Positions 4,111 to 64,000 of a stretch of 64,000 bases of DNA are shown here, piece by piece (position 1 is the first letter of the stretch; the number at the start of each line of letters is the position of its first letter). The DNA lies in assembly GCF_004010195.1 (NCBI RefSeq), contig NC_057755.1, forward strand, positions 149,042 to 213,041, written 5' to 3'. The notes beneath the pieces were generated by a model that was not told the origin of the DNA, searched no databases, and was given only the letters and a program-made list of their open reading frames with translations. The stretch is from Chiloscyllium plagiosum (Eukaryota). The position numbers and the translations under genes were made by a program.

Positions 4111-5012
4111 CTGTTGACCAGGAGGCACCTGAATAATGGTTGTCATTCATTCAGGCGTTTCTTCCTCTTTAGCCAATATTTTTTCACTGAGAACATCTTT
4201 ACTTAGGTTCATCAATAATCATTGTACAATTACACATCAATTCATTATTTCATATTCAAGACACGAGTTTTTGACTCAATTTCTTCAATCTTCACCTTTG
4301 TAAACAATTTATGAGCACCCATCCCCAATACAGATTGTTAAATCTTGATATTGAATTGTGTCATTAAGTTTTTCCATAGATAATCGAATGTCGGATAACA
4401 TATTTCAGCCAAGCACTGGGGCGTTGTGATCTTGCCAGATAATCCAATATTTGGATAATCTGTGAAGACCCATTGGTCCAGATAAACCCATCACTCGCAG
4501 CCAATCCGTCACTTCTAATCACGCTTAGCCTCGTTCCATCTGACCCTACCCCTGGCAGTCAACTCTTCCCCCTTTATCTGCTGTCCCTTTTTCACCTCTT
4601 TCAATGTTTCTGAAGGTGGAGGTGGATAGATTCCTATTCAGCTTGGCGGGAGGTAATCATTATCAAGGACAAGCAGGAATGTGGAAAATACTTTCGAATT
4701 GGACGACCCATGATTTTCTGGAATAGCAGGCTGTCCAAACACGAAGGTGTGGATGGCCTCCTGCTGTTCATTGTCTGTGCGTCCCCGCGTGTGTCAATCC
4801 GTCAGCCAACCAAGGATAGCAGCGTGTGCCTGAGAGTGGTGAATGGTGACCCATTCTGTTTCCCTATTTCCCATCCACCGTTGGATGTTATACCCAGATC
4901 CATGTGATTGTGTTGATGAAATCCTGGCCATACATATGCAAGCCCTGCACTGGAACACTGCAGCTGCCTTTGGACTTCACTCAGTTGTCTTGTTGAGTCA
5001 TTAAACGAAGAT

Positions 5013-5963
5013 TTACGTGAACAGTTTGTGCACCGCATTCCCGAACATCTGTCTGAACCTAGGCAGAGTCGCTGCACAGATTACTGTATTCGTTCTGCAG
5101 TTGAAATCCTTGCGCATTTCTTCAGTGTATGTTAAAATGATGAGAGGACTCTACTTCCAACAATCTGTTCGTTTAAAGTTATTGTAGAAGATATTAGCAG
5201 CGTGCACTACTCCACATAAATAAGAAGCAGATGGATATGCTGTAGATTGAAATCACCAACTTTCTCCGGCTCTCCATCTCGGCGTCTTTTTGGCTAACTC
5301 CTTTCTTTGACCTCCTCAGGTTCTTGCGGGCTAGACACAGCACAAAAATATACCTGACGGTCAGAATGTTCATCAACTGAATTAACACGAATGGCATCAA
5401 AGGGATGTCGACGGCACCACAGAACGTTGTCTATTATCCTCCTTGGTTTAAACCAAACATAGAAGGGATTTTTTTTTAAACAGAGCAGGATGCCATTTGC
5501 AACCAGAGCCACAGCAAGACTTTCTCTGTCCAATGACTTTCTCTTCATTTTCAGGCAATAAATAACTATAAAATGATCAAAGCAGAAAAGGACAGTGAAC
5601 CACATGGAACAGTCCAAAACTGCAAAAGCCAAGATAAAGATAGCACTGTACACAGGAGTGATGTCCAGGAAACAGCCTGGTAGGTAAACTTAGGCAAAAG
5701 TGAGAACTGAAGATGCTTGAAGCCAGAGTGTAGATCAGAGTGGTGCTGGAAAAGCATAGCAGGTCTTTGCCCAAAAGATCGATTTTCCTGCTCCTGAGAT
5801 GCTGTCTGACCTGCTGTGCTAAGTATTTATCTGAGTTGCCACAGTATTATCTTAGTGAGAATGAACATCAGATCCGACGTTGTCATAGCCAACAAGCAGT
5901 GCGTTGTGCAGTTAGAGATGCCACAATTACCAAATGCAAAGACCAAAATCACCAGCAAATTAA
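5013..5963 (-). pseudogene. GPR139/GPR142-like GPCR pseudogene, exon 2
   Basis: Acceptor tctttcag|TTAAT at 5963. Fragments NLLVIL...CLLAMTTSDL, DCSMWFTVLFCFDHF and MESRRKLVISIYSIS. Has an in-frame stop after WQLR, frameshifts, an ECL2-TM5 deletion and a Penelope insertion. The terminal stop at 5013-5015 aligns with the intact paralog. Confidence 0.92.
5688..5820. mobile_element. Penelope terminal-repeat insertion with internal inversion inside the GPCR pseudo-exon
   Basis: The first half matches the repeat in minus orientation (GTGGTGCTGGAAAAGCATAGCAGGTC) and the second half in plus orientation (GATTTTCCTGCTCC...GACCTGCTGTGCT). It is absent from the paralog at about 26790. Confidence 0.8.
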
Positions 5964-6129
5964 CTGAAAGAGACAGGGGGCAACATTCAAAGTGAGAATT
6001 AATGAGCAATGTTTATCCACGTCGGTACAGCGAGCAATGGAAGATCTTAGAACTGAATTGTGTCAGCTGGAAGGGTTCAGTGTCGAGTTTGAACAGGACA
6101 GCTCCAATGACCTGACCCGTTTTGAAGCT

Positions 6130-6450
6130 TCTCCCTCCTGGCTTTAACTACGTGTGGGCAGGCAACCAACATATGGGAGACGGGCCATAAATTTTAAGTT
6201 GAGAGGGAAGAGGTTTACAGTGGATCTAAGGAAAAGGTTTTCGCCGAGAGAGCGTTGGGCCCTGGTAATGCAGTGCCTGGAAGGGTCGTGGAAGCAGGAA
6301 ACCTCACAAATTTTAAAAACTACCTGAATGAACATTTGAAGCGTCATAACATTGGACAATATGAGACTACTGCAGGAGGCTGGGAGGAGTAGACATTTCG
6401 TATCGTTTTGATAGCGCAAACTGGATGCAATTAAGGATCATTTTCTGTAC
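6130..6450 (+). mobile_element. Degraded CR1 3' fragment
   Basis: GGCCATAAATTTTAAGTTGAGAGG and TTTTCGCCGAGAGAGCG resemble the CR1 GH..K...F.QRV C-terminal region. Confidence 0.6.
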
Positions 6451-6457
6451 AGTCTGA

Positions 6458-6600
6458 AAAAGAATCAGAAATAACGGGCAAAGCCCAACAGTTAGCAGCA
6501 TCTGTGGGAAGAGAAACAGATTTAGTGGAATCACTGTTCATTAGAACTTCTTCATCTGAATATATGTCACTGAACTCAAAATATCATCTCAGGTTTTTCC
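6458..6600. mobile_element. Degenerate Penelope-type repeat in inverted pair; paralogous copies at 27350-27510 and 60110-60260
   Basis: GCAGCATCTGTGGGAAGAGAAACAGA...TTCATTAGAAC followed by an opposite-orientation remnant. It sits at the same intronic position in three units. Confidence 0.55.
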
Positions 6601-6729
6601 TGTAAAAGGCCCTTTAATTGCAACCAAAACACAGGGATTCATTTCCAACAGGGAACTGATATTTAACGTTTTGATATTCACCAACGATGGAACAGTTGTT
6701 TAACTGGTCTTCATGTACTGGGCATAGTT

Positions 6730-9330
6730 AGAATCATAGAGATGCACAACACAGAAACAGCCCTTAAGCTCAAATTGTCCATGCTGTCCACATATCCGAA
6801 ATTAATGTAATCCATTTGCCTCCATATTCCTCTAAACCTATTCTGTTAATTTACTCATCCAGATACTTATTAAATGTTGTAATTGCACCAGCCACCATCG
6901 CTTCCTCTGACAGTTCATTCCACATACACACCAATCTTTGCATGAAAAGGTTGCCCCTTATTACCCTTTTAAAGTTTCCTCCTCTCAGCCTAAACCTATC
7001 TGCTCTAGTTTTGGTCTCCCACAAACCTGGGGGAAAACTTGTCTACTTACCCTGCCCATGTCCTTTATGATCTGATAATCTTTCACAAGGTCACCGCTCC
7101 ACCTCCGACACTCCAAGGAGATAGGCCCCAGCCTATTCAGCCTCGTCCTGTAGCTCAAGTACTCCAACACTGGCAAAGTCCTTGTATTTACTTTCTGAAA
7201 CCTTTCAAGTTTCAAGATATTCTTCGTTTTGAAGGGAGACCAGAATTGGACATGGTATACCAAAAGCGGCCGAACCAATGTCCTGCACAGACATAACGTA
7301 GTCGCCCAATTCCAGTACTCAAGGCTCTGACTAATAAACAGACGTATATCAAACGTCTTCTTCACCATCCAACCTACCTGAGACTTATTTTCAAGGAACT
7401 ATGAACCTGCACTCCAATGTCGCTTTGTTCACCAACGCTGCCCAGAACCTTAACATTAGCTGTATATGTCCTGCTGCGATTTGCCTTTCCAAAATGCAGC
7501 ACTTCATGATCACCTTAATTAAACTCTATCTGACGCTGCTTGGCCAATTGGCCCATTAGATGGAGATCTCGTTGTACACTAAGGGAACCTTCTTCGCTAC
7601 CTTCTCCAACTCTAATTTTCTTGTCATCTACAAACTTGCTAACTTTGTCTCCCATGTTCATATTCAAATCATGAAAATGAATGAGGGGAAACTGTATATC
7701 CAGCACCGATCCTTGTGGCACATCACTGGTCTCAGGCCTTCAGTCTGAAAAAAAAACAACCCTCCACCACTACCCCCTGTCTTCTACCTTCGAGCCATTC
7801 CTTCCCAAAGGCTTGTACTCCCTGATTTCAATGTGATGTAACCTTGTTCGCTACTCTTCGGCGAGGAATCTGGTTGACGACCTTCCTGAATTTCATAAAG
7901 ATCATGTCCACCGTTCTGCCTTCATAACGTCTTCACAAAACAAAATCAAGCTTGTGAGACACGATTTCCCACGCACAAGGCCAAGTTGATTATCCTTAAT
8001 CAGTCCTTGCCAATCCAAATGCATGCAAATTCTGTCCCTGAGGATTCCCTGCAACAGCTTCCCAACCACGACGTCAGACTCAGCAATCCATAGTTCTCTG
8101 ACTTTTCCTTACCAACTTTCTCAAATCGTGGCACCACCAGAAACAACCACCAGGCTTCCAGCATCTCAGTTGTGACCAAGGATGATACAAATGTCTCAAG
8201 AAGAGGCCCAGCAATCACTTGACTTACTTCCAAAAGAGATCTCGGTACGTCTGATCATATTCTGGGGATTTATCCAACTTCATACATTTTAAGACATGCA
8301 GAACTGCAACTTCTGTAATATGGACATTTTTAACATGTCTCTATTTATTTCCCCAAAATCTGCATCTCCATATCTTTCTACGCAGTAAATAATGATGCAA
8401 AAAATACTCAATTAATACTTACCCTTCCTGTGCAGTTCCATTAATAGGCTGCCTTGCTGGTCTTTGAGGGGTCCCTTTTTCTCCTTAGTTATGATATTGT
8501 CCTTAATGTATTTATGAAACCTCATTGGTTTCGACTTAACTCTATTTGCCAAAGTAATCTCATGTCTCCTTATTTCCTTCTTAAGTATACTCCATTATAC
8601 TCCGAAGTATTCACTCTCTCTCTCTGCTGTCTATCTCTATCATTTGCCTCCTTTTTCTTAGCAAAACCTAATTTTTTTTCGGGATCCAACGTTCCTTATA
8701 CCTATCATCCTTGCCTTTCACCTGAACAGGAACGTATTGTCTCTGAACTCTAATTGACTCACTTTTCAAGGCTTCCCATTCTGTACCTGTCGCTTTACCT
8801 GTGAATATCTGCCCACTACCACCACTATCCCACCCACCCACCCCGCACTTTTGATAGTTCTTTGCATTTACTATCAAAATTGGCTTTCCTGTAATTTAGA
8901 ACTTCAACTTTTAGATCTGGTATATCCTTTTTCATCAGTGTATTAAAACTAATACAATTATTGTCGCTGGATCCAAAAGTGCTTCCGCACTCAGACCTCA
9001 GTCACTTGCCCTGCCTTATTTCCTAAGAGTTTGTCAAGGTTTGTGCCTTCTCCAGTAAGTACATCCAATTCTTGCTCACACTCAACAAGTGCCTCTCCAT
9101 CTAGACCCTCACCACGATGGACGTCTATGTCTCTGTTTGGAAAGAAAAAATTCCCTACCATTACCACCTTATCATCATTTCAGATCAGTGAGACCGCCTT
9201 ACAATTTTTTTTCCCTTAAAGGTCCCACTGTCTATTGGGGAGTCAGCACTACAATCGCAATTACGGGCTCAGCCCTTTCTTATTTCTCAGTTCAGCCCAC
9301 GTAACTTTCCTAAATGTATTCCGAGGAATA
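6730..9330 (-). mobile_element. CR1 LINE, ancestral intronic copy of the GPCR unit (ORF2 part; 5' end resumes at about 10050)
   Basis: TLVRPLLVYHVQFWSP and MPQGSVL...KFVDD motifs. Same flank (ACAGGGATT...CATAGTTAGA) as 27540-27630 and 60285-60390. Confidence 0.9.
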
Positions 9331-9331
9331 A

Positions 9332-10025
9332 AGTCGAGAGAGTAGTGCCCATAAAGCACAATAGTCAGGCAGCATCAGAGGAGCAGGAGAATGGAAGCTT
9401 GGGGAAAAATACCTTCATCAAGAATGAGGCTGGGAGCCTCAGGGTGTGACAGAGATATATGGAGGGGGTGGGTCCCGGAGTAAGGTAGCTGAGAGTGCGA
9501 TACGTGGATGAAAGTGGGGGTTAAAGTGACAGGTCAGAGAGGACGGTGGGGAGAATAGGTGCGAAGGAAGATGGACAGGTAGGTCAGGTCATGAGGGTAG
9601 TGCTGAGCTGGAAGGTTGGAACTGAGGTAAGATGGGACTGGGGAAAATGTGTAAACTGGTGAAATTCACATTGATGCCCTGGGGTTGGATAGTCACAAGG
9701 CAGAAGACGAATCGTTCTTCCTCCAGGCGTCGGGTGGTAAGGGAGTTGGGATGGAGGAGTCCCAGGACCTGCATGTCCTCGGCAGAGTGGGAGGAGTAGT
9801 TGAAGCATTCGAACGCGGGATGTGGTGATGATGCAGGTGTCCCAAAGATATTCTCTGAAGCGCTGTGGCGAATCGTCATCCAGTCTGACCAATGCAGTGG
9901 AGATCGCATCAGGAACAATGGATACAGTTAATGCCATGTGTGGAAGGGCAGCTGAAACTTTGATGGATGTGGAAGGTTCCTTTGGGGTCTTGGACAGAGA
10001 TGGGGAAGGAGGTGTGAACACAGAT
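9332..10025 (-). mobile_element. Penelope-like retroelement 3' fragment with GIY-YIG region
   Basis: TFHIHQSFSCPSTHGINCIHC...CIGQTG...RFREYL and FNYSSHSAEDMQVLGLL...RRLEEERFVFCLVTIQPQGIN. Confidence 0.85.
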
Positions 10026-11320
10026 CTTGCAATTGAGGTTAGCGCAAAAGAGGAGCAACCTTTCTAAACACAATCTCCACCGCCCCCACCCTCCACATAG
10101 AATTACCGAGAACCTTCTGGTCAGCATAAGACAAAAATGCTGAGTTGTAGCACTTGAAAAGATTTTATTATTATACAGATAATTTTAACAGAGTTGAGAA
10201 AGGTTTGTTTCATCACTGAAGGCACAAACTGGGGTTCTGTTTACTCACTGAATCCCTCATAGTTTGTTTTGAAAAGTGAACAATTCCTTTTCAAATTTGG
10301 CAAATGTTCTAATTTTGCTTGAACATTCCATTAGCAAATAAGGCAAAATGCAAATAGGGAAATGCGACTTTTTTATTGCAATCTCTGCATTATCTAACTC
10401 AAATAGTCTTGGAATGGCTTTGTAAATATTTTATGAATAAAGTACATAGTGCAAAACAAAACAGTCCTGCAATTACTGAATGTGACAGATCCAATCCATT
10501 GTATAATAAAATATAGTATGATAAAAATCCGGCCTCTCTGACTGTGTGTGGTTTTCTGGTTATGTCAGGGGCAATTGACATTTAAAATAGTAGTACGAAT
10601 ACTCAGCAGTTCCTAGACAGTACATGATTTCACAATACTTCTTTTAAAAAAAATAATCTTTATGTTGTAATGAGAATAATTTAACAAGGTTAGCAATATT
10701 ATTCCACGACATGAAAAATTGATTTATGCATTGTAAAAATGATGAAGCTACAAGCAATTCTTCATTAAACAACTGGAAAGTAGACGCAGCCCATACTGTT
10801 GCAGTGGTCAAAACGAATAACACAGAAAAAAGTCTATTTTACCACCAAGTAAATTCACTTTAACAGTCCTCACTCTTTCTATAATCCCACAGAAATGCAC
10901 AGAGGTTAAAAAAGAGTCTTCATCAACTGATTAAATTAGCTACCTGCTCTGATCCCACTTTCCAGCACCTGGTCCACCGCATTGAGAGTTTCTACACTTC
11001 ACTTGCAGATTCCTTTTAAATGAATTAAGGTTGTTCACCTCAAGCCATCATCAAAACTTGGCAGTAAATTCCAGTCGCACCATCATATTCTGAATGAAAA
11101 AGTAGGCCTCAGTGCCTCAATAATCCTCCCATCAGTTTTTTTCACGCTGAGCTTCCTGGTAAATCGTCCTACATTCGGGAAGACAAGTCTCCATCCAAGA
11201 TCCTGCTTATTTTCTACATCCCAATCATGTCAAATCTCATTCACCTATGTTTATTGAAAAAGACTCTACCCTATCCATCTTTCCTCAATGTTGCACTAAT
11301 TTCCTCACAATGCCAACATT

Positions 11321-12251
11321 NNNNNNNNNNNNNNNNNNNNNNNNNNNNNNNNNNNNNNNNNNNNNNNNNNNNNNNNNNNNNNNNNNNNNNNNNNNNNNNN
11401 NNNNNNNNNNNNNNNNNNNNNNNNNNNNNNNNNNNNNNNNNNNNNNNNNNNNNNNNNNNNNNNNNNNNNNNNNNNNNNNNNNNNNNNNNNNNNNNNNNNN
11501 NNNNNNNNNNNNNNNNNNNNNNNNNNNNNNNNNNNNNNNNNNNNNNNNNNNNNNNNNNNNNNNNNNNNNNNNNNNNNNNNNNNNNNNNNNNNNNNNNNNN
11601 NNNNNNNNNNNNNNNNNNNNNNNNNNNNNNNNNNNNNNNNNNNNNNNNNNNNNNNNNNNNNNNNNNNNNNNNNNNNNNNNNNNNNNNNNNNNNNNNNNNN
11701 NNNNNNNNNNNNNNNNNNNNNNNNNNNNNNNNNNNNNNNNNNNNNNNNNNNNNNNNNNNNNNNNNNNNNNNNNNNNNNNNNNNNNNNNNNNNNNNNNNNN
11801 NNNNNNNNNNNNNNNNNNNNNNNNNNNNNNNNNNNNNNNNNNNNNNNNNNNNNNNNNNNNNNNNNNNNNNNNNNNNNNNNNNNNNNNNNNNNNNNNNNNN
11901 NNNNNNNNNNNNNNNNNNNNNNNNNNNNNNNNNNNNNNNNNNNNNNNNNNNNNNNNNNNNNNNNNNNNNNNNNNNNNNNNNNNNNNNNNNNNNNNNNNNN
12001 NNNNNNNNNNNNNNNNNNNNNNNNNNNNNNNNNNNNNNNNNNNNNNNNNNNNNNNNNNNNNNNNNNNNNNNNNNNNNNNNNNNNNNNNNNNNNNNNNNNN
12101 NNNNNNNNNNNNNNNNNNNNNNNNNNNNNNNNNNNNNNNNNNNNNNNNNNNNNNNNNNNNNNNNNNNNNNNNNNNNNNNNNNNNNNNNNNNNNNNNNNNN
12201 NNNNNNNNNNNNNNNNNNNNNNNNNNNNNNNNNNNNNNNNNNNNNNNNNNN
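11321..12251. other. Assembly gap (931 N)
   Basis: Run of N. Confidence 1.
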
Positions 12252-15200
12252 CGTTCCAAACGCCCACCACCCTCTGTGTGACGTACTTGTCGCGTGTATC
12301 TCCCGTAAACTTTCCAACTCTCACCTTGAAAGCGTGACCTCTCGTTATTGAATCCTTCACGCTGGGAAAAAGTTTATCTCTATCCACCTTGTCTATATCC
12401 TTCATGATTTTGTAAACCTCAATCAGGTCCCCCTCTGAATCTCCTTTCTTCTAATGAAAATAAACCTAACCTACCCAACCTCTCTTCATAGTTAGCAGCT
12501 TCCATACCGGGCAACATCCTCGTAAATCTTCTCTGCAGATTCTCCAAAACGTCCACATCCTTAATGTGGCGACCTGAACTGTACACAGTATTCTAAACGC
12601 GGCAGAACGAATGCCTTGTAAATTTGAGCATGACTTGCCAGCTCTTATACTCAATACCCCATCCAATGAAGGCAAGCATACTAACTGCCTTCTTGACCAC
12701 TCTGTCCATCTGTGTGGCAAACTTCAGGGGACAATGGACCTGCACTTCCAGATCTCTCTGCCCATCAACTTTTCCCAAGGCTCGTCCGTTCATTGCATTA
12801 TTTTCTCTAGAAACAGTATTGCCTAAATGCATCAACTCACATTTGTTTGGATTGAAATCCATCTGCCACTTTTCCGCCAACTCTCCAGTCGATCGATATC
12901 CTCCTGTATTCTCTGTCAGTCACTAATGCTTTCTGCTACTCCACCAATCTTCGTGTCATCTGCAAACATGCTGATCATGCCAACAGTGACCTCTTCCAGA
13001 TCATTTATGAATATTACAAACAGAAGTGGCCCCAACACTGACGTCTGTGGAACCCGATTGGTCAAGTTTCTCCATTTCGAGAAACATCCTTCAACTACTG
13101 CTCTCTATCTCCTGTTGCTCAAACAGTTCTTTATCCAACTAGTAGAACACCTTGCACACCATGTGACTTCACTTTCCCCATTAGTCTACCATGTGGAACC
13201 TTATTAAATACCCACTAAATCCCATGTATATGATATAAACAGCTCTTCGTTTATCGATCAATTTGGTCACTTACTCGAAGAACTCTATTAAGTTGGTAAG
13301 GCACGATCTCCCCCGCAGATAACCATGTTGCCTATCACTGATAAGCCAATTATTTTTCTAAATATAAATAATCCTATCCCTCAGTACCTCCTCCATAAAC
13401 TTTCCCATCACCGACGTCAGGCTCACAGGTCTGTCGTTACCAGGAATATCCCTACTACCCTTCTTGTACAGCGGTACAACATGAGCAATCCTCCACTCCT
13501 CCTGCACCTCACCCTTATTTAAGGGTGCCACAAAGATATTTGTCAGGTCCCCAGCTATTTCCTCTCTCGCCTCCCTTTGCGCCTTGGGATATGTTCTATC
13601 CGGTCCTGCGGATTTGTCCACCTTAATAACCTCTAGCATTCCCAGCACATCTTCCCCACTTACGTCAACGTGATCCGGACTAATCAAACTTCTATCCCTA
13701 ATCTCAACATTCATCATGTTCCTCTCCTCAGTGAACCCTGATGCAAAGTAAACATTCAGAATCTCACCCATTCGCTCAGTGTCGACACACAGCCTTCCTT
13801 CCTTACACGTTCTCTAGTTAACCGCTTGTATCTTATATAAGAATAAGATGCTTTGGGATTCTCGTTAATTCTGCTCGCTCTCTAACATTATTTCATGACC
13901 CCTTTTAGCCCACTTGATTCCTCATTTAAGACTTGTCCTACTCTTCCGATATTCCCCATGGCCCGTTCTGTTCTTAGCTGCTTCGACCTTATGTACGCTT
14001 CCCTTTTCCTCTTGGCTAGTCATACAATTTCTCCTGTCATCCACAGTTCAGGAATCTTGCCCTTCCTATCCTTTGCTTTCAACGGGACATGCCTATCTTG
14101 CACGATCTCAAATGTGGACATCCCTTCAAATACTGTGTCCAATCCACATTTCTGATCTCCTGCCTAATTTTGATATAATTGGCCTTGGTCCAGTTTAGTA
14201 CTCTTCCCTTTGGTTCACTCTCTGCTTTACCTGTGAGTATTCTAAAACTTACAGAATTGTGGTCACTGTTCCCAAAGAAATCCCCCACCGCAACCTTTAC
14301 CTCCAGTCCTGGCTCGTTCCCCAGTACCAGGTCTAATATGGCCCTTTCCCTCGTCGGACTATTGACATATTGCACAAAAAACTCTCCTGGACGATCCTTG
14401 CAAATTCTACCCATAATGCCTCACTATCCAAGACCTCCATAGTGTGCTCCTTTCGCACAACCGTGATATCATCCCTGACCAGCAATGTAGCTCCACCCTG
14501 CCTTTTAATTCCCACCCTGTCCTGTCTGAAGCGTCTATATCCTGGAACATTTCGTTGTCAATCATCATGCCCTTCCGTCAACCATGTCTTTGTAATTGAA
14601 ATAACCTCATATTCCCAGGCACCTGTCCAAGCCGTAAGTTCATCTGCCTTACACACTATACTCCTTGCATTAAAGTAGATGCATTTCAAGCCACAAGTTT
14701 TTTTTGTGCTCATTTGCTCTATGCTTACTCTTCCCTTCTTAATTCTTGCAGTCTCCAGTCTCCACCTCGCTGACTACATGTTTTCTCTTCTGGTCCCCCC
14801 CCCCCCCCGCCACATTAGATTAAAATCTCTACAATAGCAGGAGCAAAAACTCTCCCAAGGCCATTGGTCCCAGTCTGGTACAGATGTATACCGTCCATTT
14901 TGTAATAGGCCCACCTTCCCCAATGGTCCCAATGTCCAACAAATCTGCACCCCTCCCTCCTACACCATCTGTCAAACCACGTGTTCTTCCTGCCTGTTTT
15001 TCATTTCTACTCTGGCTGCACGTGGCGCACGGAGTAATCCCCAGATCACTACCTTTGAGCTCCTCCTCTTTAAATTGTCTCCTCGCTCCCTGAATTCTTC
15101 TTTCGGGAACTCATCTCGATTTCTACTTATATCGTTTGTGCCAAATGCACCAAGTCAACTGGCTGTTCACACTCCCCTTTTTGAATTTTCTTCAGCCGAT

Positions 15201-21812: not shown

Positions 21813-22009
21813 TAATAGTGCTACGTGTAAACATAATCAGCTCTAATATAAGTCAATATTTGTACAGGCACAAACGGTTCCAACAAAATAAAAAATACAT
21901 AATGTATATTATACACATAAAACTTGAAAGAAATTGGAAATGAAGGATTTGTAGCCAAATTTGCAGATGACACAAAGATAGATGAGAAGGCAAGTTAGCA
22001 CATTGCATG

Positions 22010-43230: not shown

Positions 43231-43419
43231 CCTGCTGGCATCGCCTGGAGGATTCTTGCATTACAATGTGGTTCGATGCATTTATTTAAGAATTTTAACA
43301 AGCAATTCACAGTGGTGAGTTAACTCCCACTTGTGTTGGAGTATTTTTAGAATTGAGGATTACTGGATGATACAAATCTTAATCGGTCAATAGCAAACTT
43401 TGGAAAATGCATGTGGAAT

Positions 43420-52477: not shown

Positions 52478-53210
52478 TATGGGATTTGAAGGCATGCATT
52501 ATACCTTGGAGAGAAAGAAAAAGCTTTTGAGGTGGCAAGACTTTACAGACACCTGTTAAGTGAATATTTCGCATTATCAGAGTATACTGGAAAATTAGAG
52601 GTATGTTACATCTGGCTGCTATGTTAAAATTTAACCAAGAAGTGTTCATGATGCCCAAGAATTACAAACCCCAATCGATTTTGAATGTTACGGTTTTGAC
52701 AACATTGAACCAATGACAAGATGGATGCCTGGGGTATAAACAAGCCGGAATTTTGGACAGTTAGCCAGAGAGAGCGACCATCCGCCATCATCAGAGTATC
52801 TGGTTGCAAAATACTCTCTATCAAAAGTTCCTTTTCATATGAAGCAGCTTTGCCTCAAAAGACCGAAGAAGATGCATGGAATTTTTCAGCTGAAAGAAGA
52901 TAGACACAGACGGCTGCTGTCTGACTTCGAAGATTAGGTTGACACAATTTAAAGAGGGACTTTTATTTGATCAAAATATTGTCACAGATTTGAAGGTAAT
53001 TCACAGGCTTTTAACAGAAAGGAGGCTTAGACTTGTATATAGTTGTGTAGAATTCACTTTTAGAGGTAAATGATAAAATTGATATTTTTCTTTAATTCGT
53101 GGAATTTGGGACATTCTCTGTCACTCATACATTAACTGCTTATGAGGCGAGGTGACCTTTTTCTCTGTGTTGGCTTAATTAGCAGAAGGGTTCACCACTG
53201 TATCATAAAA
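52478..53210 (+). mobile_element. Probable solo LTR related to 47865-49106
   Basis: CCAATGA...GATGCCTGGGGTATAAA and the terminal GCGAGGTGA...TTAGCAGAAGGGTT...TCATAA are shared with the other copy. Confidence 0.6.
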
Positions 53211-54829
53211 CTCTCCATTCCATCGTCTCTATTCCCTTGTATTGAACTCTCTTCAAGTTACTCTCTGGTTAATACTCTCCGTGCTTTTGGTATTAAATCG
53301 TTTCCGTTTCCCCATAGTTAACACTTTCCTCACTCAATTACAAACCATCTTGTTCCAATAAAACTCAATTTAAGCATTTCTCTGTGAGTTTGCATTCAAT
53401 CCCATCCCGTTATGCTTTATTTTACCCTCTCGCTATTACTTTCTCTTTAAACTTTCTATTATTATTGCCTATTTAATCCGATGACTATCATTCTGCATTG
53501 AATTCTCTCCCTGTCACAATCTTTAGTCCCTTCTATAACTCTCTCTATCTTCCCGTGATGCTTTTCAATTTTTGTTTTCCTTTCCAGAATGTGTGTTCCC
53601 CACACAATAACCAGAGATCGAGTGTCCCTGCTAAATCATTTATCATAACTGCTAACACGTGATCGCCGCTGCTGTGTGTTACCGCCTCTCTGGCTGGCGC
53701 TGGAATTGAAAATGTTCCCAAAGCACCGGAGGGGCTCAGCAGCAAACCACACGTCAGACAACATGTTGCTGATCGGGATGAGGCAGGCATGACTTCAACA
53801 TATACTATTATTTACATAATAAAAGCAACTGCTCTGATATACAACAAAAATTATGTGCAAAGTGGAACAGTCACAATACAAAGTAATATTCATGGAAATA
53901 AACTGAAACAGTTCCAATTCACAACTTCTATATACAAAATGAAACAGCTCCAGTACATTTCAATATTTACATCTCGATATGAACCGGTCCACTCTGCAAT
54001 ATTAAAATATGAACACGAACAGTTCGAATGCACAGCTGTTATACACAATATGAACCATTTTATAACAGCTTCAAGACTGATGTATAAACGTAAATGCTTC
54101 AGAAACACAAAATTATTTAAATATAAACATGTGCAACTGCAACACACATCAATGATTATATATAATAGAAAATACAAAATTGTTTGTTCAGAGATAAACC
54201 AATACGTATATACAAGCATGAACAGCTCAGAAACCAAATAGGAATTGAATACGAAGATGAATGCTTTTCAGACACAACTACATTTATCTTTACAAATGAG
54301 TAAATATCTTAAATATATTTACATATAAATTGGAACAGCTCAAATCATACAAAAAGTAGTCGATCAGCACAGAAAAAGTTACACTGCACAGAGTAAGAGA
54401 TATTACACACCAACCTGCAAGAACTGGCAGACACCTTTTATACATATACACAAAACCCCTTAAAAACAGTTACTGAACCATAACCACAATGAGGTATAGA
54501 CAGGGAACAACACTCAGAAACAAACAGAGACAAAACCATAGAGGAACACAGAGAAATCTGCTGGGGGTAGGAAGATATTGACACACGGACAAACAGCCAA
54601 GCACAGTCTGAACAACACACTCACCTGCTTAAACAAGAGCACAGACAGACAGAGCCACACCTTCCATTCCTCAATAATACACCAACAGTCAGAGATTCTC
54701 CCACATACAGTCAAGGAACCACCGTGTCATGCTGACGTCAACACACACACACAATTCGAGACACAGACAGAGAGTGACGTCGCCACAAAAAGCAATAAAA
54801 CATGCCTGAAGAACATGCCTGAATAAAAC

Positions 54830-54865
54830 ATTCCTGAAGAAGGGCCTGTGCCCGAAACGTCGAAT
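54830..54865 (+). ncRNA. Minimal type I hammerhead ribozyme motif (Penelope-associated)
   Basis: ATTC-CTGAAGA-A-GGGC(CTGT)GCCC-GAAA-C-GTC-GAAT. Stem I is ATTC/GAAT, the core CUGANGA and GAAA is intact, stem II is 4 bp, ACGT is palindromic in place of stem III, and the cleavage triplet is GUC. Confidence 0.8.
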
Positions 54866-55472
54866 CTCCTGTTCCCTGGATGCTGCCTGACCTGCTGTGC
54901 TGTTCCAGCAATAAAGTTTCAGAATAAAACATGCCCACATATATTGACCCTCACACACCAGAAGTGAAACACAAAAACACGAACTCCCAATCAGTATCAA
55001 GTAGAGAGAGAGGGAGATAATAAAAGTGCATGACATGGAGGGGATGTTCATTCACTGAAAGGTAATTAGTATTACGTCAAGGTATTGCTGGTTGTGTTTG
55101 TGAATTTTGTGTTTTGCAAGAATCACCTCATCGGGTAATATCAGTGAATGAAGAAATGTGGAAGTGATTTCAGTCAATTCATTTGAGAAAGTGTTAAACT
55201 GAAACTCTACTTATCTGATGTGGAGGAAGTGAGGACTGCAGATTCTGGAGATCAGAATTGACAGTGTGGTATTTGAAAAGCATAGCAAGTCAGGCATCAT
55301 CCGAGGAACAGGAGAATCGACGGTTCCGACATAAACCCTTCATCAGGAAAAGGGCCTGATGTAGTCAATTTGAGAAAACGAAACAGAGGGTGAGGAATAG
55401 ATAGGAAGATAAAGCACGAGATAGAGACAAAGGCAGATAGAGAGACAAAGCTAGAGGGAGACAGAAACAGAG

Positions 55473-55600
55473 TGTAGATTCGTTGTATCAGTTAAGATTC
55501 TGTGAATAAACTGCTGTCTGCGTCTAATCATAGTTGCCAGTGTGAGTCTCTCCTTCCGAAAGAACACGCAAAGACGGGACCCCGCGGGTCCGTCTTAACA
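55473..55600 (+). mobile_element. 128-bp TG...CA segment resembling an LTR R-U5 end
   Basis: Starts TGTAGA, has AATAAA at 55505, a GC-rich hairpin at 55571-55596, and ends TTAACA. Confidence 0.5.
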
Positions 55601-58600
55601 AGGTAAATAATAAAATTGATATTTTTCTTTAATTAGTGGAATTCGGGACATTCTCTGTCACTCATACATTAACTGCTTATGAGGCGAGGTGACCTTTTTC
55701 TCAGTGTTTGGCTTAATTAGCAGAAGGGTTCACCACTGTATCATAAAACTCTCCATTCCATCGTCTCTATTCCCCTGTATTGAACTCTCTTCAAGTTACT
55801 CTCTGGTTAGTACTCTCCGTGCTACTTGATATTAAATCGTTTCCGTTTCCCCATAGTTAACACTTTCCTCACTCAATTACAAACCATCTTGTTCCAATAA
55901 AACTCCATTTAAACATTTCGCTGTGAGTTTGCATTCAATCCCATCCCGTTATGCTTTATTTTACCCTCTCGCTACTACTCTCTCTTTAAACTTTCCATTA
56001 TTATTGCCTATTTAATCCGATGACTATTATTCTGCATTGAATTCTCTCCCTGTCACAATCTTTAGTCCCTTCTATAACTCTCTCTATCTTCCCGTGATGC
56101 TTTTCAATTTTTGTTTTCCCTTCCAGAATGTGTGTTCCCCACTCAATAATCAGAGATCGAGATTCCCTGCAAAATCATTTATCACAATTGCTAACACGTG
56201 ATCGCCGCTGCTGTGTGTTACCGCCTCTCTGGCTGGCGCTGCAATTGCAAATGTTCCCAAAGCACCGGAGGGGCTCAGCAGCAGAACCACACGTCAGACA
56301 ATATGTTGCTGATCGGGATGAGGCAGGCATAACTTCAACATATACTATTATTTACATAATAAAAACAACTGCTCCGATATACAACAAAATTTATGTGCAA
56401 AGTGGATCAGTCACAATACAAAGTAATATTCATGGAAATAAACTGGAACTGTTCCAATTCACAACTACTATACACAAAATGAAACAGCTCCAGTACATTT
56501 CAATATTTACATCTCGATATGAACCGGTCCACTATGCAATATTTAAATATGAACACGAACAGTTCGAATGCACAACTGTTATACACAATATGAACCATTT
56601 CCTTACAGCTTCAAGACTGATGTATAAACGTAAATACTTCAGAAACACAAAATTATTTAAATATAAACATGTGCAGCTGCAACACACAGCAATGATTATA
56701 TATAATAGAAAACAGTTCAGAGATAAAACAATACTTATATACAAGCATGAACAGCTCAGAAACTAAACAGGAATTGAATACGAAGATGAACACTTTTCAG
56801 ACACAACTACATTTATCTTTACAAATTAGTAAATATCTTAAATATATTTACATATAAATTGGAACAGCTCAAATCATACAAAAAGTATTCGATCAGCACA
56901 GAAAAAGTTACACTGCACAGAGTAAGAGATATTACACACCAACCTGCAAGAACTGGCTGACACCTTTTATACATATACACACAACCCCTTAAAAACATTT
57001 ATTGAACCATAACCACAATGAGATATAGACAGGGAACAACACTCAGAGACAAACAGAGACAAAACCAAAGAGGGACACAGAGAAATCCTGCTGGGGGTAG
57101 GAAGATATTGACACACGGACAACCAGCCAAGCACAGTCTGAACAACACACTCACCTGCTTAAACAAGAGCACAGACTGACAGAGCTACACCTTCCATTCC
57201 ACAATAATACACCAACAGTCAGAGACTCTCCCACATACAGTCAAGGAACCACCGTGTCATGCTGACGTTAACACACACACACAACCCGAGACACAGACAG
57301 AGAGTGACGTTGCCACAAAAGGCAATAAAACATTCCCACATATATTGATCCTCACACACCAGAAGTGAAACACAAAAACACAAACTCCCAATCAGTATCA
57401 AGTAGAGAGAGAGGGAGATAATAAAAGTGCATGACATGGAGGGGATGTTCATTCACTGAAAGGTAATTAATATTACGTCAAGGTATTGCTGGTTGTGTTT
57501 GTGAATTTTGTGTTTTGCAAGAATCACCTCATCGGGTAATATCAGTGAATGAAGAAATGTGGAAGTGATTTCAGTCAATTCATTTGAGAAAGTGTTAAAC
57601 TGAAACTCTACTTATCTGATGTGGAGAAAGTGAGGACTGCAGATGCTAGAGATCAGAATCGACAGTGTGGTATTTGAAAAGCATAGCAAGTCAGGCATCA
57701 TCCGAGGAACAGGAGAATAGACGGTTCTGACATAAACCCTTCATCAGGAAAAGGGCCTGATGTGGTCAATTTGAGAAAACGAAACAGAGGGTGAGGAATA
57801 GATAGAAAGATAAAGCACGAGATAGAGACAAAGGCAGATAGAGAGACAAAGCTAGAGGGAGACAGAAACAGAGGTACTGACAACAAGGACCTTAGAGATA
57901 GGGAGAGATAGTGACATTGCGAAAATAGGGAGAGACGGAGGAAGGGCGGACAGAGACAGCAACATGGAGAAAGAGGCAGAGAGACAGAAGGCAATGCCCT
58001 TGTAATGGAAATGTACAGGATGAAAACTCAAGAAACAAGGTCAAAACTGAAAACAAAAACGTGCATTAAACAATAACCATATTAGATGAGGGGATCATCA
58101 AAACTTTGAGACTTTCTCTTTTGGTAATAAACTGTTTATTGAGAGCTGAACAGAAAGATTCTGGCAGTGATCAGATTGTATCTGTTTTTGTCCCTCACCC
58201 TCCTCCTGTGCAGGGTCAATGCAGAGACCCCTCTTAGCGGTCTTCAATACTCATCCATAGGACAGTCCAAGATCCCAACGTTCCAGCTGAACCCATCACT
58301 CACAGCCAGTCTGTCATTTCCAATCACTGCTGCAGCTTCTTTCCATCCTACCCTGCCCCTGACCGTCACCTCTTCCCCATTTCATGCTGTCCCTTTGTCA
58401 CGTCCTTCAATGTTTCTAAAGGTGGAGGTGGATAGGATATTGTTAAGCTTGTTAGGTGGTGATCTTTATCAGGGCACAGACAAAAAATGCGGATAAACTT
58501 TAGAACTGGATGAGCCACGATCTTCTGGAATGGTCGGCGGACCAAACTCGAAGGGTTGAATGGCTTCCTGCTGCTCATTGTCTGTGTGTCCCATGTTTCA

Positions 58601-58818
58601 CAATCCGTCAGTCAATCAGGGCTAGCAGCGTGTTCCTGTGATGGCGAATGGTGACCCATCCTGTTTCCCCCGCTCCATCCACCGTTGAGTGCTATACTCA
58701 GATCCATGTCATTGTGCTGATAGAATCCTGGCTGTACATTTGCAATTCCAGCAGTGGGAACACTGAGGCTGCCTCTGCAGCTCTCTCAGTTATTTTGCTG
58801 ATTTATTAAGTGAAGAAT

Positions 58819-59160
58819 TTACGTGACCATTTGGTGCACCGCATTCCTGAAATTCGCTCTGAACTTGAGTATAGTTGCTGCATAAAATGTTTGTGCTGCA
58901 GCTGAAACCCTTCAGCATTTCTACACTGAACACAAACTTATTTGTAGAACGACTGTACTTTCCAGCAGTTGTGCAGTTAATACTGTAATATAAGAAATTT
59001 GCACCGTCCACTAACAACAGAATTATGAAGCTGATGGATAGGGCGAAGAGAGAAATCACTGACTTCCTCCAGCTCCACATCCCTGTGCCTTTGTGACTCT
59101 CTCCCTTCCTCTGTCCTCTCAGGCTCTTGCGGACTAGACTGGCCACTGAAATGTACCTGA
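58819..59160 (-). pseudogene. GPR139/GPR142-like GPCR pseudogene, 3' remnant of exon 2 (end of TM5 to stop)
   Basis: RYISVASLVRKSLRGQRKGESH...RKSVISLFALSISFIIL...EMLKGFSCSTN, with a frameshift in TM7 and the TM6 Trp lost. The 5' part is replaced by CR1 sequence (59161-59355). Confidence 0.9.
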
Positions 59161-60379
59161 GGATTTCCTCAAACACCTTGCCCACCAACGACATAAACTC
59201 ACCAGCCCATAGTTCTCTGGCTCTTCCTTAGCTTCTTTCTTATATAGTCGCAACACTTGAGCCAACCTCCAGCTTTCTGGCAGCTCACCTGTGACCAGCA
59301 ATGATAAAAGTATCTCAGCGAGTTTCCCAGCAATTACTTCCCTCGCTTCCAAAGGAGTTCACCACAGCAAACTGTAGAATTTGAACTATGAATAAGTCCG
59401 AAATTAAAGATGTGAATGATGACCACAAATCCAATGTTGATCGTCAGTTCATTTCTGTAGTTTAGAGAGGGAAAACTCCATCCTTAAGTGGGCAAGAGAT
59501 GCGTGATTCCAGACCTACGGATATGTGATAGTGAATTGCCCTCTACGCAATTAGGGATGGGCAATAAATATTGGTGCCAGCCTGTGATACCATCTTCCCG
59601 TGATTGAATAAAAAGAATCCATTTCTGAGACCGATGCAAAGGAAGTGGAAGAGGCAATTTAACTAAAGTTTAGATTGTAAAGAGGAATAGCTGAAGGCCA
59701 ATCATCCCCTCCCATGTGTATACAGAAACATCAGATGGGCAATACGTCAGAAGGGAAAGGGAAGTTCTCGTGAGTTGGGCATGTGTGAAGTTCAATGTCA
59801 ATTGGATTGGGAATGAGGCAGTAGTCGGTGAGGTGGACACAGGTGATCTTGGGATGCAAAGAACGCCAGAGTCAACTAATGTTGGCAATGACGAAAGGAG
59901 AGCCAAGTCTCAATATTGAGGGTTTGAAAATTGAAGGGATGACACCTTATTGTGGTTGCTCATCAGAAAACGATGCCTGCTCCCCCCACCAATTCTCACT
60001 AAAGTCTGAAATCATTTATGTTGCCATATATGTAATCCTTCCACAATTCTAAAAATTAATTCTGAGAGGGAGTTTGTGAAGTGATACATTTTCACGAAAT
60101 AAATCAAAGGCTGTGGATACTGAAAATATGAAACAGAAACAGTAATAACTGACGAAACTCAATAGGTATGGTATCGCCTGTGGAGAGAGAAACAGGTTTG
60201 ATGCAATCATTCTTCTTCAGAGCACCTTCCTCTCAAAACATCATCTCGGTGTTGTCCTCTCACAAGGCGCTTACTGCAAATAAAGAACAGGGATTGATTT
60301 CCAAAATGAAATTAAGATTCAGAGTGTTCATATTAATCTACTATGAAACATTTGTTTGACAGATCTTAGCAGACTGAGC

Positions 60380-61250
60380 TTGGTTGGAGTCATTGAGATA
60401 TAGAGCATGGAAACAGTCCCTTTGGTCCAAATCGTCCATGCCGATCAGATATTCGAACATCATCTATCACTATTTGCCCCCAGAACCCCATAAATCTTTC
60501 CACTTTCATTTACTCATCCAGTTGCTTTTTAAATGTTGTAATTATACCATCTTTCTTAATTTCCTGTGGCAGTTCAATTCCATACATGCACTAGTCTTAG
60601 CTTTTAACTCTTTCCACTCTCACCCTCAACCTATGCTCTCTCTCTCTGGTCTCTCATAGACCAGGGAATGTACTCTGTCTGTGTACCTTATCTATGACCC
60701 TCATGATTTTTTCAATCTCTATAATATCACCCCTAGCTCCAACGTCCCATTAAAAACTGAACTATTCAGTCTCTCACTGAAGCTCAAACCCTCCAATCCT
60801 GGTAATATCCTTGTGAATCGTTTCTGAACATTTTCATGTTTCATACCATCCTTGCTTTCAGAGTGAGACTAGAATGTTACACGTTTTTTCCCAAAAGAGG
60901 ACTAAGCGATGTCTTGTACAGCTGCAACATGACCTCACAACTCCGCTAATCAATGGTCTGACCAATCAAGGACCACATACCAAGCGTCTTCTTCACTGTC
61001 CTACCTACCGGAGACTCCACTTCTAAGGAACAATGAAACTGCACTCCAAGGTCTCTTTGTTCAGTAACACTCCCCAGGATCTTATGATTAAGTGTACCGG
61101 TCTAGCCCTGATTTGCCATTCCAACCTGCAGCACCTCAAATTTATCTAATTTGAATTCCGTCCACTTTTCCTCGGCCATTGGTCCATTTGATAAAGGTCC
61201 CATTGTACTCTGAGGTAGCCTTCTTCGCTGACTACTACAGTTTCAAATTT
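60380..61250 (-). mobile_element. CR1 3' part, ancestral intronic copy of a further unit
   Basis: Same flank and tail as at 6730 and 27625. An internal deletion joins it to the CTCACTGAAT.CTCATAG intron block. Confidence 0.85.
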
Positions 61251-63288
61251 ATCGAACCCTTCTCTGTTATGATAAACTAGGGACTTGTTAGCTCACTGAA
61301 TCTCTCATAGTTTGTTTTGAAAAGTGAATAATTCCTTGTCGTGATTAGCAAATGTTCTAATTTTAACTGTACATTCGGTGAGAAAATAATGCAAAATGCA
61401 AATGAGGAAATAGGACTTTTTTGCATTACCTAGCTGAAGTAGTTTTGAAATGTGCTTGTTGATACTTTATGAACAAGCTACACAATGCAGAACAAAATAG
61501 AGAGTTCACTACTGCAATTACTGAATGTGGTAGCTCCAATCTATTGCATAATAACAAAAGTCCGGTCTCCCTGACTCCCGACTGCGTTCTAATCATTTCA
61601 GGGGAAATTAACATTTAACGTGAGAATCTGAATACACAGCAGTTCATAGACAGTACAAGATTTCACAATACTTACTTTTTAAAAAAAAATGTTTTATTTT
61701 GTAATGATAATAATTAAACAAGGTAAGCAATATTAACCTAATTAATTGATAAATCTTAGCTAATATTAATCCTCGCCATGTAAAGTTGCTTTATACATTG
61801 TAAAATTATGAACTACAAACACTTCTTCAGGGAATATCTGGAATTTAGCTGAACTCTCTGGAATTCATTTTAACAATCCACAGTGTTCCAATAGCCGAAA
61901 TGGGCAAAACAGCAGCAGCTCATTTAACCCACAAAGCGAATTCACTTTAACACTCCTTAGTGTTTCTACAATCCCACAGAAATGCATGGAAGTACTAGCA
62001 CTGCAAGAGGTCATTCATGTCTGCAACAAATGAACAAACTATCTACCTGTTCTAATCCTCCTTTCCAGCACCTGGTGCACAGCGTTGAGATTTTCTATAT
62101 ATCAGGTGCAGGTCCAAGTTCCCTTTAAATGACTTAAGGTTAGTCACCTCAAGTCATAATCAAAACAGTGAATTCCAGTCGCACCATCATCTTCTAAATG
62201 TAACGCTGGGCCTCGTGTCCTCGATTATCCTCCCATCAACACCTAACACCATAATGTAAATATCCTCTTTTCTCTCTGTGCAATTCTGTCTGCACTACTC
62301 AGCATTGAGCAGTAGTGTGCACTAAACCACAGCTGTGAGCGATACAGTTTCTCATGTAGTCCCACTGTGACCAATCTGGCAGGAGGTGAAAGAATTTGTC
62401 TTGCGTTGGTCGTGGTACAGAGTAAGAGAAGAATAACATTATGGGGTAATATGGAATTGCATATTTGTGGATATCTGATCAGGGTCTGTGGCATATAATG
62501 GACGTAAACAGATAGAGTTGGATTCTAATCTTTTTGAAATGTGGGGTTAGTTTTTCAGCTCCTCAGCAGTTCGTATAAGTGTTTAATAGCCTCACTTCTC
62601 TTCTGACACCAGCTTTTAAATTACAGAACAAGCCAGATCCTCAATAGAAATACAACTTGATGGATCATAACCTTATTTATTTTGATTTAACAAAGTGGTC
62701 TCTTGCTGAATCGCACACGATGCTGCAAATATTGCTTCACAAAAAAAGAAGATTATTCCAAAAGTAATAACGATAAAATGGAATAAACGAATCCATGAAG
62801 GTATAACACAGATTCAAAGCTAATCAACATGCAGCCAATGTACTACTCTCATTAACTCAGAACAACGCATAAATAAAACAAAAGGACAGGACTTTTATAT
62901 ATCATACAAAACATGACTCTCAGTGCCATTCCAAAGAAAACAACCTCATATAATAGTCACACCAGATTCCTTGTGTCTGCCAATTCTAAACTGGAACTGC
63001 TGTAAATTTCTTCCCAGAGATACCTCATCCCTGAGATTCAGTGTACTCAGCTTAAAACAATTTGTTCAGAGCTTTACCTTGTCCCAACACTTCTGTCTGG
63101 GTCTAATATAGCAATGTAATTTACTAAGACTCTCAGTTCCTACGCATGAGCATAAATTTATACATTCACTCAGTTCCAAGCTATTACTGGAACTAAAAGA
63201 AATGACAAGAATGATGGAAGGTAAACTACTGCTTTGTCAGTTGAGGGTTTCTTCTTTAATTGCAAATTCTAGAACTCTTCAACCAATC

Positions 63289-63971
63289 AATGAAGGTAAG
63301 CATGCAGGTACAGCTGGTAGTGAAGAAGACCAATAGCATGCTTGCCTTCATCACAAGAGGGACTGAGTATAGAAGCAAAGAGGTTCCTCTGCAGCTGTAC
63401 AGGACCCTGGTGAGACCACACCTGGAATGTTGTGTGCAGTTCTGGTCTCCAAATTTGAGGAAAGACATTCTGGCTATTGCAGAAGTGCAGCGTAGGTTCA
63501 CGAGGTCAATTCTTGGAATGGCGGGACTACCTTACGCTGAAAGACTGGAGCAACTGGGCTTGTAAACGCTTGAGTTTAGAAGACTGAGAGGGAATCTGAT
63601 TGAGACATATAAGATTATTCAAGGATTGGACAGTCTGGAGGAAGGAAACATGTTTCCGCTGATGGGTGAGCGCCGAACCAGGGGACACAACTTAAAAATA
63701 CGGGCAGACCATTTAGGACAGAGATGAGGAGAAACGTCTTCACCCAGAGAGTGGTGGCTGTGTGGAATGCTCTGCCACAGAGGGCAGTGGAGACCCAGTC
63801 TCTGGATTCATTTAAGAAAGAGTTGGATAGAGCTCTCAAGGACAGTGGAATCAAGGGTAATGGAGATAAGGCAGGAACAGGATACTGATTAAGGATTATC
63901 AGCCATGATCATAATGAATGGTGGTGCAGGCGTTAAGGGCAGAATGGCCTACTCCTGCACCTATCGTCTAT
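63289..63971 (+). mobile_element. 5'-truncated young CR1 LINE
   Basis: LYRTLVRPHLECCVQFWSP and 3' UTR GAATGGCCTACTCCTGCACCTAT. Flanked by AATC at 63285 and 63972, with an empty site at about 16610. Confidence 0.93.
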
Positions 63972-64000
63972 AATCTTTCAGTCTCCCTTTTAACCACGCT

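Follow-up and report, generated by a model that had tools for sequence, protein, structure and literature searches.

An expanded and rapidly evolving family of rhodopsin-like receptors in the shark Chiloscyllium plagiosum: a GPR210-like offshoot with a possible chemosensory role

Introduction

The OR (olfactory receptor), TAAR, V1R/ORA, V2R/OlfC, T1R and T2R repertoires of vertebrates are defined by sensory-neuron expression and external ligands, and they form clusters that undergo birth and death and hold many pseudogenes (PMC10869828). In cartilaginous fish, 20-62 olfactory receptor genes are known despite many sensory neurons (PMC10869828), and in the catshark, neurons labelled by a V2R co-receptor are of only "moderate frequency" (PMC10116579). 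The low OR count has served as an argument that sharks give up discrimination in favor of sensitivity (PMC10116579), and a relative paucity of GPCRs (G protein-coupled receptors) has been described in cartilaginous fishes (PMC8455134). Here, a 64,000-nucleotide stretch from the shark Chiloscyllium plagiosum (NCBI RefSeq assembly GCF_004010195.1, contig NC_057755.1; G000:C46:149042-213041), referred to as the window, is analyzed together with the receptor family to which its genes belong. This is a large, clustered, fast-turnover family of class A (rhodopsin-like) GPCRs that combines a conserved signalling core with a diversifying outer face. A preliminary description, made from the letters of the window, had taken its genes for a tandem array of GPR139/142-like receptors and a candidate chemosensory family.

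The nearest relatives of the family are GPR139-group proteins. GPR139 itself requires F3.33, H5.43, W6.48 and N7.38 for responding to Trp, Phe and surrogate agonists (PMC5430874). In addition, GPR210A, GPR210B and a third subtype are orphan receptors of coelacanth, gar and certain fishes that are related to GPR139 and GPR142 (Rinne et al. 2019, PMC6504862).

Size and turnover of the family

That the family belongs to class A follows from Pfam, an AlphaFold2 model, a fold search and motif counts in 62 open members. Exon 2 of gene B, the open gene of the window, matches Pfam 7tm_1 (E=2e-13); no OR, V1R, V2R or taste-receptor Pfam model was found at E<=0.01. The class A features N1.50, D2.50, a D/ERY-type motif, P5.50, N7.49 and Y7.53 are all present. 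The AlphaFold2 model of exon 2 (mean predicted local distance difference test score, pLDDT, 81; predicted template modelling score, pTM, 0.80) has seven helices and a beta-hairpin in extracellular loop (ECL) 2. In the fold search, motilin, neurotensin and chemokine receptors stand level with GPR139, a result that does not discriminate among class A receptors; GPR139 is the sole solved structure matched by sequence (E=6e-4).

The family extends far beyond a local array. All 134 scored matches of gene B exon 2 in the genome (7,700 candidates) have at least 53% identity, and about 46 of them belong to small contigs with high numbers. Two codon patterns of 23 nt, one from transmembrane helix (TM) 3 and one from TM7, have 897 and 327 exact matches in the genome, against 0 and 1 for their reversed controls. 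Since these patterns overlap little (none of the 55 C8 loci with pattern 1 has pattern 2) and no more than 13 of the 69 members detected by protein similarity carry pattern 1, a conservative reading would put the family at well over 1,000 loci, pseudogenes included. The family matches listed fall on about 35 large contigs, not each of which was checked. Haplotype duplication explains little of this size, because only one of 26 close sequences had to be removed as more than 98% identical to another. Thus, instead of only a few copies genome-wide, the lineage-expanded birth-and-death family proposed in the preliminary description takes in more than a thousand loci.

The proposed heavy pseudogenization is likewise confirmed. 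In 264 kb around the window, three of the 12 exon-2 copies are open, while in the C8 subfamily, 55 sampled copies comprise 17 open, 30 broken and eight gap-unresolved ones. The 55 were drawn from the 100 pattern hits at the head of the list; among the copies counted as open, one has a break close to its end and another is a member of a different subfamily. These open fractions suggest that the genome may hold several hundred open family genes. Among the 120 homologs listed of a total of 869, 10 shark species are represented and neither a ray nor a chimaera appears; nearly all of them are automatically labelled "probable" or "putative GPR139".

The C8 subfamily (G000:C8:0.6-89 Mb, L121-L180) is young, with a median DNA identity of 90% among 20 sampled copies, and shows the strongest selection. 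It is not tightly clustered; its copies are scattered over most of one large contig. Its unit duplicates as a block of at least 8 kb with minisatellites. Exon 1 was not found within 8-18 kb upstream of C8 copies (five regions of 8 kb and three of 10 kb). At the exon-2 acceptor of C8, a loose end that resembled a spliced exon 1 was rejected as such, since it matched none of the loci examined and only one small contig lacking family sequence.

Phylogenetic placement

The true GPR139 (L085) and GPR142 (L058/L084, whose nearest homologs are named GPR142) each exist in this genome as single, separate genes. They are 56% identical to one another, and each is 24-33% identical to family members. A search with GPR142 led to orphan receptors of bichir/reedfish and lamprey that carry the cysteine motif of the family in intracellular loop (ICL) 1, and this orphan lineage also occurs in sturgeon, bowfin, teleosts, lungfish, coelacanth, chimaera, sharks and rays. 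C. plagiosum itself has three single-copy genes of this type (L096, L097 and L098), which are automatically named GPR139 where annotated. The taxon spread and the three subtypes agree with the published "GPR210" (PMC6504862), whose Ensembl identifiers do not appear in the supplement searched. The name GPR210-like is thus our own, provisional assignment.

A tree of 61 rows and 277 columns was built with IQ-TREE, in which 22 family rows were chosen for diversity and 12 invertebrate rows served as outgroup. In this tree, the family members form a single clade (100/100) with the single gene L098 as its sister (98/90), and this clade is contained in a GPR210-like clade (99/95) that includes lamprey, bichir, bowfin, teleost, lungfish, coelacanth and chimaera orphans as well as L096-L098. 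The GPR210-like clade adjoins amphioxus genes, and GPR139/142 form a separate group (100/100). A union of the family with GPR139/142 is rejected by the approximately unbiased (AU) test (p=0.013). An earlier FastTree analysis had left the sister group of the family unresolved. On the present tree, the family is placed as an offshoot of the GPR210-like branch beside GPR139/142, with its long stem branch (0.99) as a caveat. The membership in the GPR139/142 clade that had been proposed for it is therefore not supported.

The family and the GPR210-like orphans share the ICL1 cysteine, a TM3-ECL2 cysteine pair, the position of the intron and a short N-terminus. They differ in that the orphans appear in one or a few copies and retain both P6.50 and R6.51, whereas the family has over 1,000 loci, the long stem, W6.48, D3.49 and a variable pocket but no P6.50. 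The family, GPR139/142 and the GPR210-like genes all have a phase-1 intron placed one codon before the TM1 Asn, which is hence not diagnostic. About 0.5 Mb separate the true GPR139 (C21:58.73 Mb) from a family cluster near a contig end (L003, L004; C21:58.73-60.4 Mb), and several other family clusters are likewise near contig ends. This neighborhood was considered as a sign of origin and discarded, as the members of the cluster belong to the derived branch of the window.

Some family members and the shark GPR142 exceed the cut-off of the Srw model PF10324, and the language-model neighbors of the family include Srw-bearing clusters, which brings in the Srw/FMRFamide/MIP-sex-peptide-receptor-like group. 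The nematode srw chemoreceptors are a precedent for a chemosensory expansion from an Srw-like group. Nevertheless, the invertebrate rows of the Srw/FMRFamide type fall outside the chordate clade in the tree, so that a sensory role in sharks, if there is one, would have arisen by a separate expansion. The Srw search also picked up an open frame whose ECL2 holds an inserted long tandem repeat of 12 residues (L062:211-2010), which is presumably somatostatin-receptor-like, judging by its motifs.

Motifs and ligand pocket

A DRF motif, NTxxY in place of NPxxY, the lack of a TM6 proline and a short N-terminus, all listed in the preliminary description, are indeed present. Two of them are not new traits of the family, because the loss of P7.50 is common to the true GPR139/142, which have NFxxY, and the short N-terminus is common to the single-copy sister gene L098 and an amphioxus relative.

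The pocket departs from that of GPR139/142. The set F3.33/H5.43/W6.48/N7.38 is found in none of the 62 open family members, compared with nine of ten GPR139/142 rows, which argues against the sensing of amino acids by the GPR139 mechanism that had been suggested for the window. At these four positions, gene B has R, D, W and E, and 23 different residue sets occur among the 62 members. W6.48 is kept in 60 of 62; P6.50 is found in only four and R6.51 is lost, while Arg 6.51 and Pro 6.50 are invariant in GPR139/142. Conversely, cysteines in TM3 and ECL2 are present in 62 of 62 family members, and GPR139/142 lack them. Thus GPR139/142 (PDB 7vug, 9m42), the source of the automatic database name of the family, resemble it in the wider group, the intron, NxxxY without P7.50 and W6.48, and differ from it in forming a separate clade, in keeping the ligand residues and in lacking the C3.25-ECL2 cysteine pair.

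Positive selection on the extracellular face

Selection was analyzed with our own GY94 site-model code, using IQ-TREE trees with scaled branch lengths and naive empirical Bayes estimates. The set of the window subfamily comprised 25 of 30 loci, four having been dropped as not full-length or not open and one as a near-duplicate; the C8 set comprised 15 of the 17 open copies. In the window subfamily, twice the log-likelihood difference (2dL) between M2a and M1a is 89.4, with a dN/dS ratio (omega) of 3.1 on 9% of sites, and M8 against M8a gives 88.6. In the C8 subfamily, the values are 242.6, omega 7.2 on 7% of sites, and 240.3. In eight null simulations, 2dL was at most 1.05.

The sites with a posterior above 0.95, 11 in the window subfamily and 16 in C8, all lie in ECL1, ECL2 or the top of TM6-ECL3-TM7, that is, on the ligand-facing side. 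The extracellular part, with boundaries taken from the AlphaFold2 model, makes up 41-42% of the columns and holds all selected sites (Fisher p=6e-5 for the window subfamily and 3e-7 for C8). Purifying selection (omega about 0.2) acts on 45-69% of sites.

Promoters and expression

Exon 1 was located in 29 of 40 upstream regions, belonging to 28 family genes and L098. The promoter test included 28 sequences, namely 27 family genes with a full promoter and gene B. An O/E-like site (at least six of eight bases) 8-19 nt before a TATA-like box is found in 17 of 28 promoters, compared with a null mean of 3.2 (maximum 6) and with six of 77 intron controls. Exon 1, the donor site and this promoter layout are retained across subfamilies only about 40-50% identical. 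It is therefore likely that the promoters of the family have a cell-type programme in common, as far as their motifs can indicate. O/E-like sites have been found in mouse OR and V1R promoters (PMC3247230). Nevertheless, judged by motif counts, the promoters do not choose between olfactory neurons and, for instance, B cells.

Expression was looked for in raw RNA runs. A search for gene B across the RNA runs listed none that contains it. Against exon 2 of gene B, four runs gave a few low-identity paralog reads in X6, a poly-A single-cell run, and none in X7, a result that is uninformative on gene B. A C8 gene collected 226 reads of at least 85% identity from about 2% of X6. Since these reads are mostly 85-99% alike, they come from several paralogs. 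They include a pile about 40-fold deep over the stop codon and 3' untranslated region, in the orientation to be expected of sense RNA. X7, from the same sample as X6, has no reads on the C8 gene. The C8-type subfamily is thus transcribed; the tissue label is absent, so that transcription is all that these reads convey. At L143:7735-8163, X6 reads after poly-T begin near the exon-2 acceptor in the orientation to be expected of antisense RNA, which suggests either a polyadenylated antisense transcript or internal priming.

Gene B, the open gene of the window

The window contains three gene units, A, B and C, all on the minus strand; coordinates below are positions in the window. Gene B corresponds to the intact exon-2 paralog and the compact two-exon, TATA-driven gene anticipated in the preliminary description. 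Its exon 1 (43083..43149) encodes 22 codons plus 1 nt, covering the short N-terminus and the first half of TM1, and ends in a GTAAGA donor. This exon is the best match of a profile made from 38 annotated homolog N-termini, and homologous exons with the same promoter are present at G000:C46:58664, 213640 and 234990. Exon 2 (26055..26929) is open from the second half of TM1 to the stop and includes the C3.25-ECL2 cysteine pair and the ECL2 beta-hairpin. When joined, the two exons give a protein of 313 aa with one terminal stop. The core promoter (43225..43252) has a TATAAA box at 43230 and, 12 nt upstream of it, a degenerate O/E(EBF)-like site with five of eight informative bases. The 3' flank (21830..26054) belongs to the duplicated unit.

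The phase-1 intron of gene B (26930..43082, 16,153 bp) is composite, as seen by comparing the window with a simpler neighbor gene (G000:C46:58664-66632): it comprises the intron of an upstream unit, the old 3' flank of that unit and the intron of a downstream unit. The order is intron, a 2.3-kb duplication with two anchor sequences, a long interspersed nuclear element (LINE), the former 3' flank, intron and exon 2. Both intron copies are about 70% identical, the same divergence as between paralogs A and B. Thus, gene B appears to unite exon 1 of one decayed unit with exon 2 of the next. The simplest reading would be that two old neighbors each lost one exon and that their remainders make up one open gene, with the splicing being predicted.

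This layout is not a one-off assembly error, because an inverted copy of gene B at C46:231-257 kb (231054-257641; L065-L068), which is 93-96% identical, is laid out alike and also has exon 2 open, with 93% amino-acid identity to B. The two copies differ by 20 nonsynonymous and 10 synonymous codons. In the inverted copy, a Pro at the end of exon 1 is changed to Arg and exon 2 has several radical changes, so that one of the twins may be decaying.

Pseudogenes, anchors and other features of the window

The two dead exon-2 paralogs recognized before are real. Exon 2 of pseudogene A (about 5012..5989, minus strand) has an insertion after TM2, a deletion in ECL2/TM5, frameshifts and stops. Its intron (5990..16832, minus strand) has an anchor at 10244, LINE remnants and an assembly gap of 931 bases (11321-12251); exon 1 and the promoter are absent. 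Of exon 2 of pseudogene C, only the 3' portion is left, from the end of TM5 to the stop (58805..59160, minus strand), in a frameshifted form with residues ~187-300 of the 300-aa frame. Its intron (59161..64000, minus strand) includes an anchor variant at 61292, and its exon 1 lies 599 bp past the end of the window, at G000:C46:213640.

The anchor is a 19-mer found exactly at 10244, 37972 and 40273 and with one mismatch at 61292. Several of its 40 scored genome matches have an exon-2 copy of the same subfamily at a distance of a few kb, and it is a genuine intron module of the window subfamily; being part of that intron, it was rejected as a genome-wide transposon. As a shared module, therefore, the anchors described earlier stand. 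They do not mark four exon-less units, as two of them (10244 and 61292) lie in the introns of A and C and the other two (37972 and 40273) in that of B. The latter pair is contained in a tandem duplication (36738..41338, no strand assigned) of 2.3 kb with 98.3% identity. The inverted duplicate of gene B has this segment as a single copy, and the duplication may be either a recent event or an assembly artefact.

Exon-less pieces do exist, as had been described, and they are mostly intron and flank fragments rather than gene units. One remnant (32708..34562, minus strand), now within the intron of B, is the 3' flank left by a unit that lost its exon 2 by deletion, and it matches the 3' flank of B itself (23348-24765) and the flank of the neighbor gene. 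Another is a tandem duplication of the 3' flank of pseudogene C (53064..57873, no strand assigned), 95-98% identical and without a coding exon. Two plus-strand open frames in it, at 53663-54241 (192 codons) and 56098-56766 (222 codons), are of low complexity and probably due to chance. Finally, a minus-strand frame of 296 codons at 1302-2192 matches reverse transcriptase weakly (E=8e-4, short of the Pfam cut-off) and is typical of the LINE remnants that fill introns and spacers.

Discussion

As an explanation for this family, a shark repertoire for external chemosensation, expressed in olfactory or other chemosensory cells, is favored here with a probability of about 0.5. It is put first because of the scale of the family, the promoter layout and the mismatch between the number of olfactory neurons and that of receptors in sharks. 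The family resembles the known chemoreceptor repertoires in its clusters, birth and death and many pseudogenes, and also in its compact gene, selection on the pocket and partially O/E-like promoter; it is not homologous at the family level to any of the six. In such a repertoire, genes would multiply and decay by tandem and segmental duplication while selection diversifies the ligand-facing surface, so that each paralog might bind a different water-borne ligand. These ligands would probably be larger than a free amino acid and peptide-like, since the family keeps the TM3-ECL2 disulfide and the beta-hairpin of peptide receptors, absent in GPR139/142. Signalling might proceed via Gq or Go to phospholipase C and a transient receptor potential channel, and expression would be sparse in each cell. 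A bolder version, that one GPR210-like orphan gave rise to a seventh vertebrate chemoreceptor family with hundreds of working receptors, several-fold more than the known shark ORs, and serving as the main repertoire of nose or skin, can be advanced only tentatively, at something short of an even chance.

Several observations weigh against a sensory role. The strict CCCNNGGG O/E site occurs in none of the 28 promoters, the homeodomain TAATKA site in 12 of 28 is barely above its control (39 of 155), and the strongest promoter motif is forkhead-like (18 of 28 compared with 24 of 155). EBF and FoxO drive B-cell genes too, and homologous promoters are non-independent samples. Gene B has no read of at least 95% identity in two raw RNA runs lacking a tissue label, and the sole family reads come from runs of that kind. 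An omega near 7 suits a pathogen arms race as well as odor tuning. Gene conversion between paralogs lies outside the codon models and can inflate likelihood tests, but it would not prefer one face of the membrane, where the selected sites lie. Lastly, the top-50 specific genes of catshark "brain and olfactory epithelium" include no GPCR, a list that sparse receptors would escape (PMC11979771).

Some of these points also suit innate-immune or barrier sensors on leukocytes or mucosal cells that would recognize microbial or parasite peptides, like formyl-peptide, MRGPR or chemokine-type receptors. The very strong extracellular selection in the young subfamily (omega 7.2) and the high turnover would be expected of them, and the model fold is peptide- or chemokine-receptor-like with its ECL2 hairpin, with the reservation that fold matches do not discriminate among class A. 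A forkhead-like and EBF-like promoter also fits B-lineage control, and the C8-type transcripts come from a single-cell run without a tissue label. OR-kappa is a precedent for immune expression of a gene from a chemoreceptor family (PMC13113109). Nevertheless, this explanation seems less likely than a sensory role. The ETS (three of 28 compared with 31 of 155) and octamer (one of 28 compared with five of 155) motifs, typical of myeloid and B-cell promoters, are not enriched, and more than 1,000 clustered loci on many chromosomes are on the OR/V1R scale, unlike known immune GPCR families. Internal or reproductive recognition, such as gut chemosensing or gamete and oviducal signalling by endogenous peptides, must be considered less probable still. 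Strong positive selection is frequent in reproductive proteins. GPR139 responds to dynorphin (PMC12287315) and to Trp/Phe (PMC5430874), and shark V2Rs are expressed also in testis and rectal gland (PMC11979771); against this, hundreds of open paralogs with divergent pockets would outnumber any plausible set of endogenous ligands.

Two further explanations are highly improbable. According to one of them, the expansion is largely neutral: a GPCR cassette rides in duplication-prone, repeat-rich DNA and most copies are idle. It is consistent with two-thirds to three-quarters of the sampled copies being broken, with units that carry LINE remnants and minisatellites duplicating as blocks of at least 8 kb, with the lack of a C8 exon 1 within 8-18 kb in the regions checked, and with the 20 nonsynonymous and 10 synonymous codon differences between gene B and its inverted twin, which are compatible with one of the two decaying. 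For the family as a whole, it is already largely refuted by the purifying selection on 45-69% of sites together with selected sites that are all extracellular, by the exon 1, donor and promoter layout kept across subfamilies about 40-50% identical, and by the retention of the family across 10 shark species. The other takes the genes for GPR139/142 paralogs that sense aromatic amino acids as in mammals. In its favor are the sequence match to GPR139, alone among solved structures (E=6e-4), the phase-1 intron that both have immediately before the TM1 Asn, the loss of P7.50 in both, and W6.48 kept by 60 of 62 members. Yet true GPR139 and GPR142 exist as separate single genes, 24-33% identical to the family; the tree separates the two groups and the AU test rejects their union (p=0.013); the ligand-binding set occurs in 0 of 62 members compared with nine of ten GPR139/142 rows; and Arg 6.51 and Pro 6.50, invariant in GPR139/142, are lost.

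No description of this expansion was found in the literature covered, including the main texts of PMC8455134, PMC10620051, PMC7677710 and PMC11979771; supplements and subscription papers outside that coverage may mention the family. The genes are already in databases under an automatic name, and what is new is a birth-and-death repertoire of the sensor type in a lineage from which no such repertoire is known. Under the label "probable GPR139", over 1,000 loci whose positive selection is directed at the pocket undercut the premise that sharks are poor in receptors, whichever the tissue. If the family is immune, it would be a germline-encoded sensor repertoire not known before, in the oldest jawed lineage. 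If it is olfactory, the account of shark smell would change, and a vertebrate chemoreceptor family would have had an independent origin.

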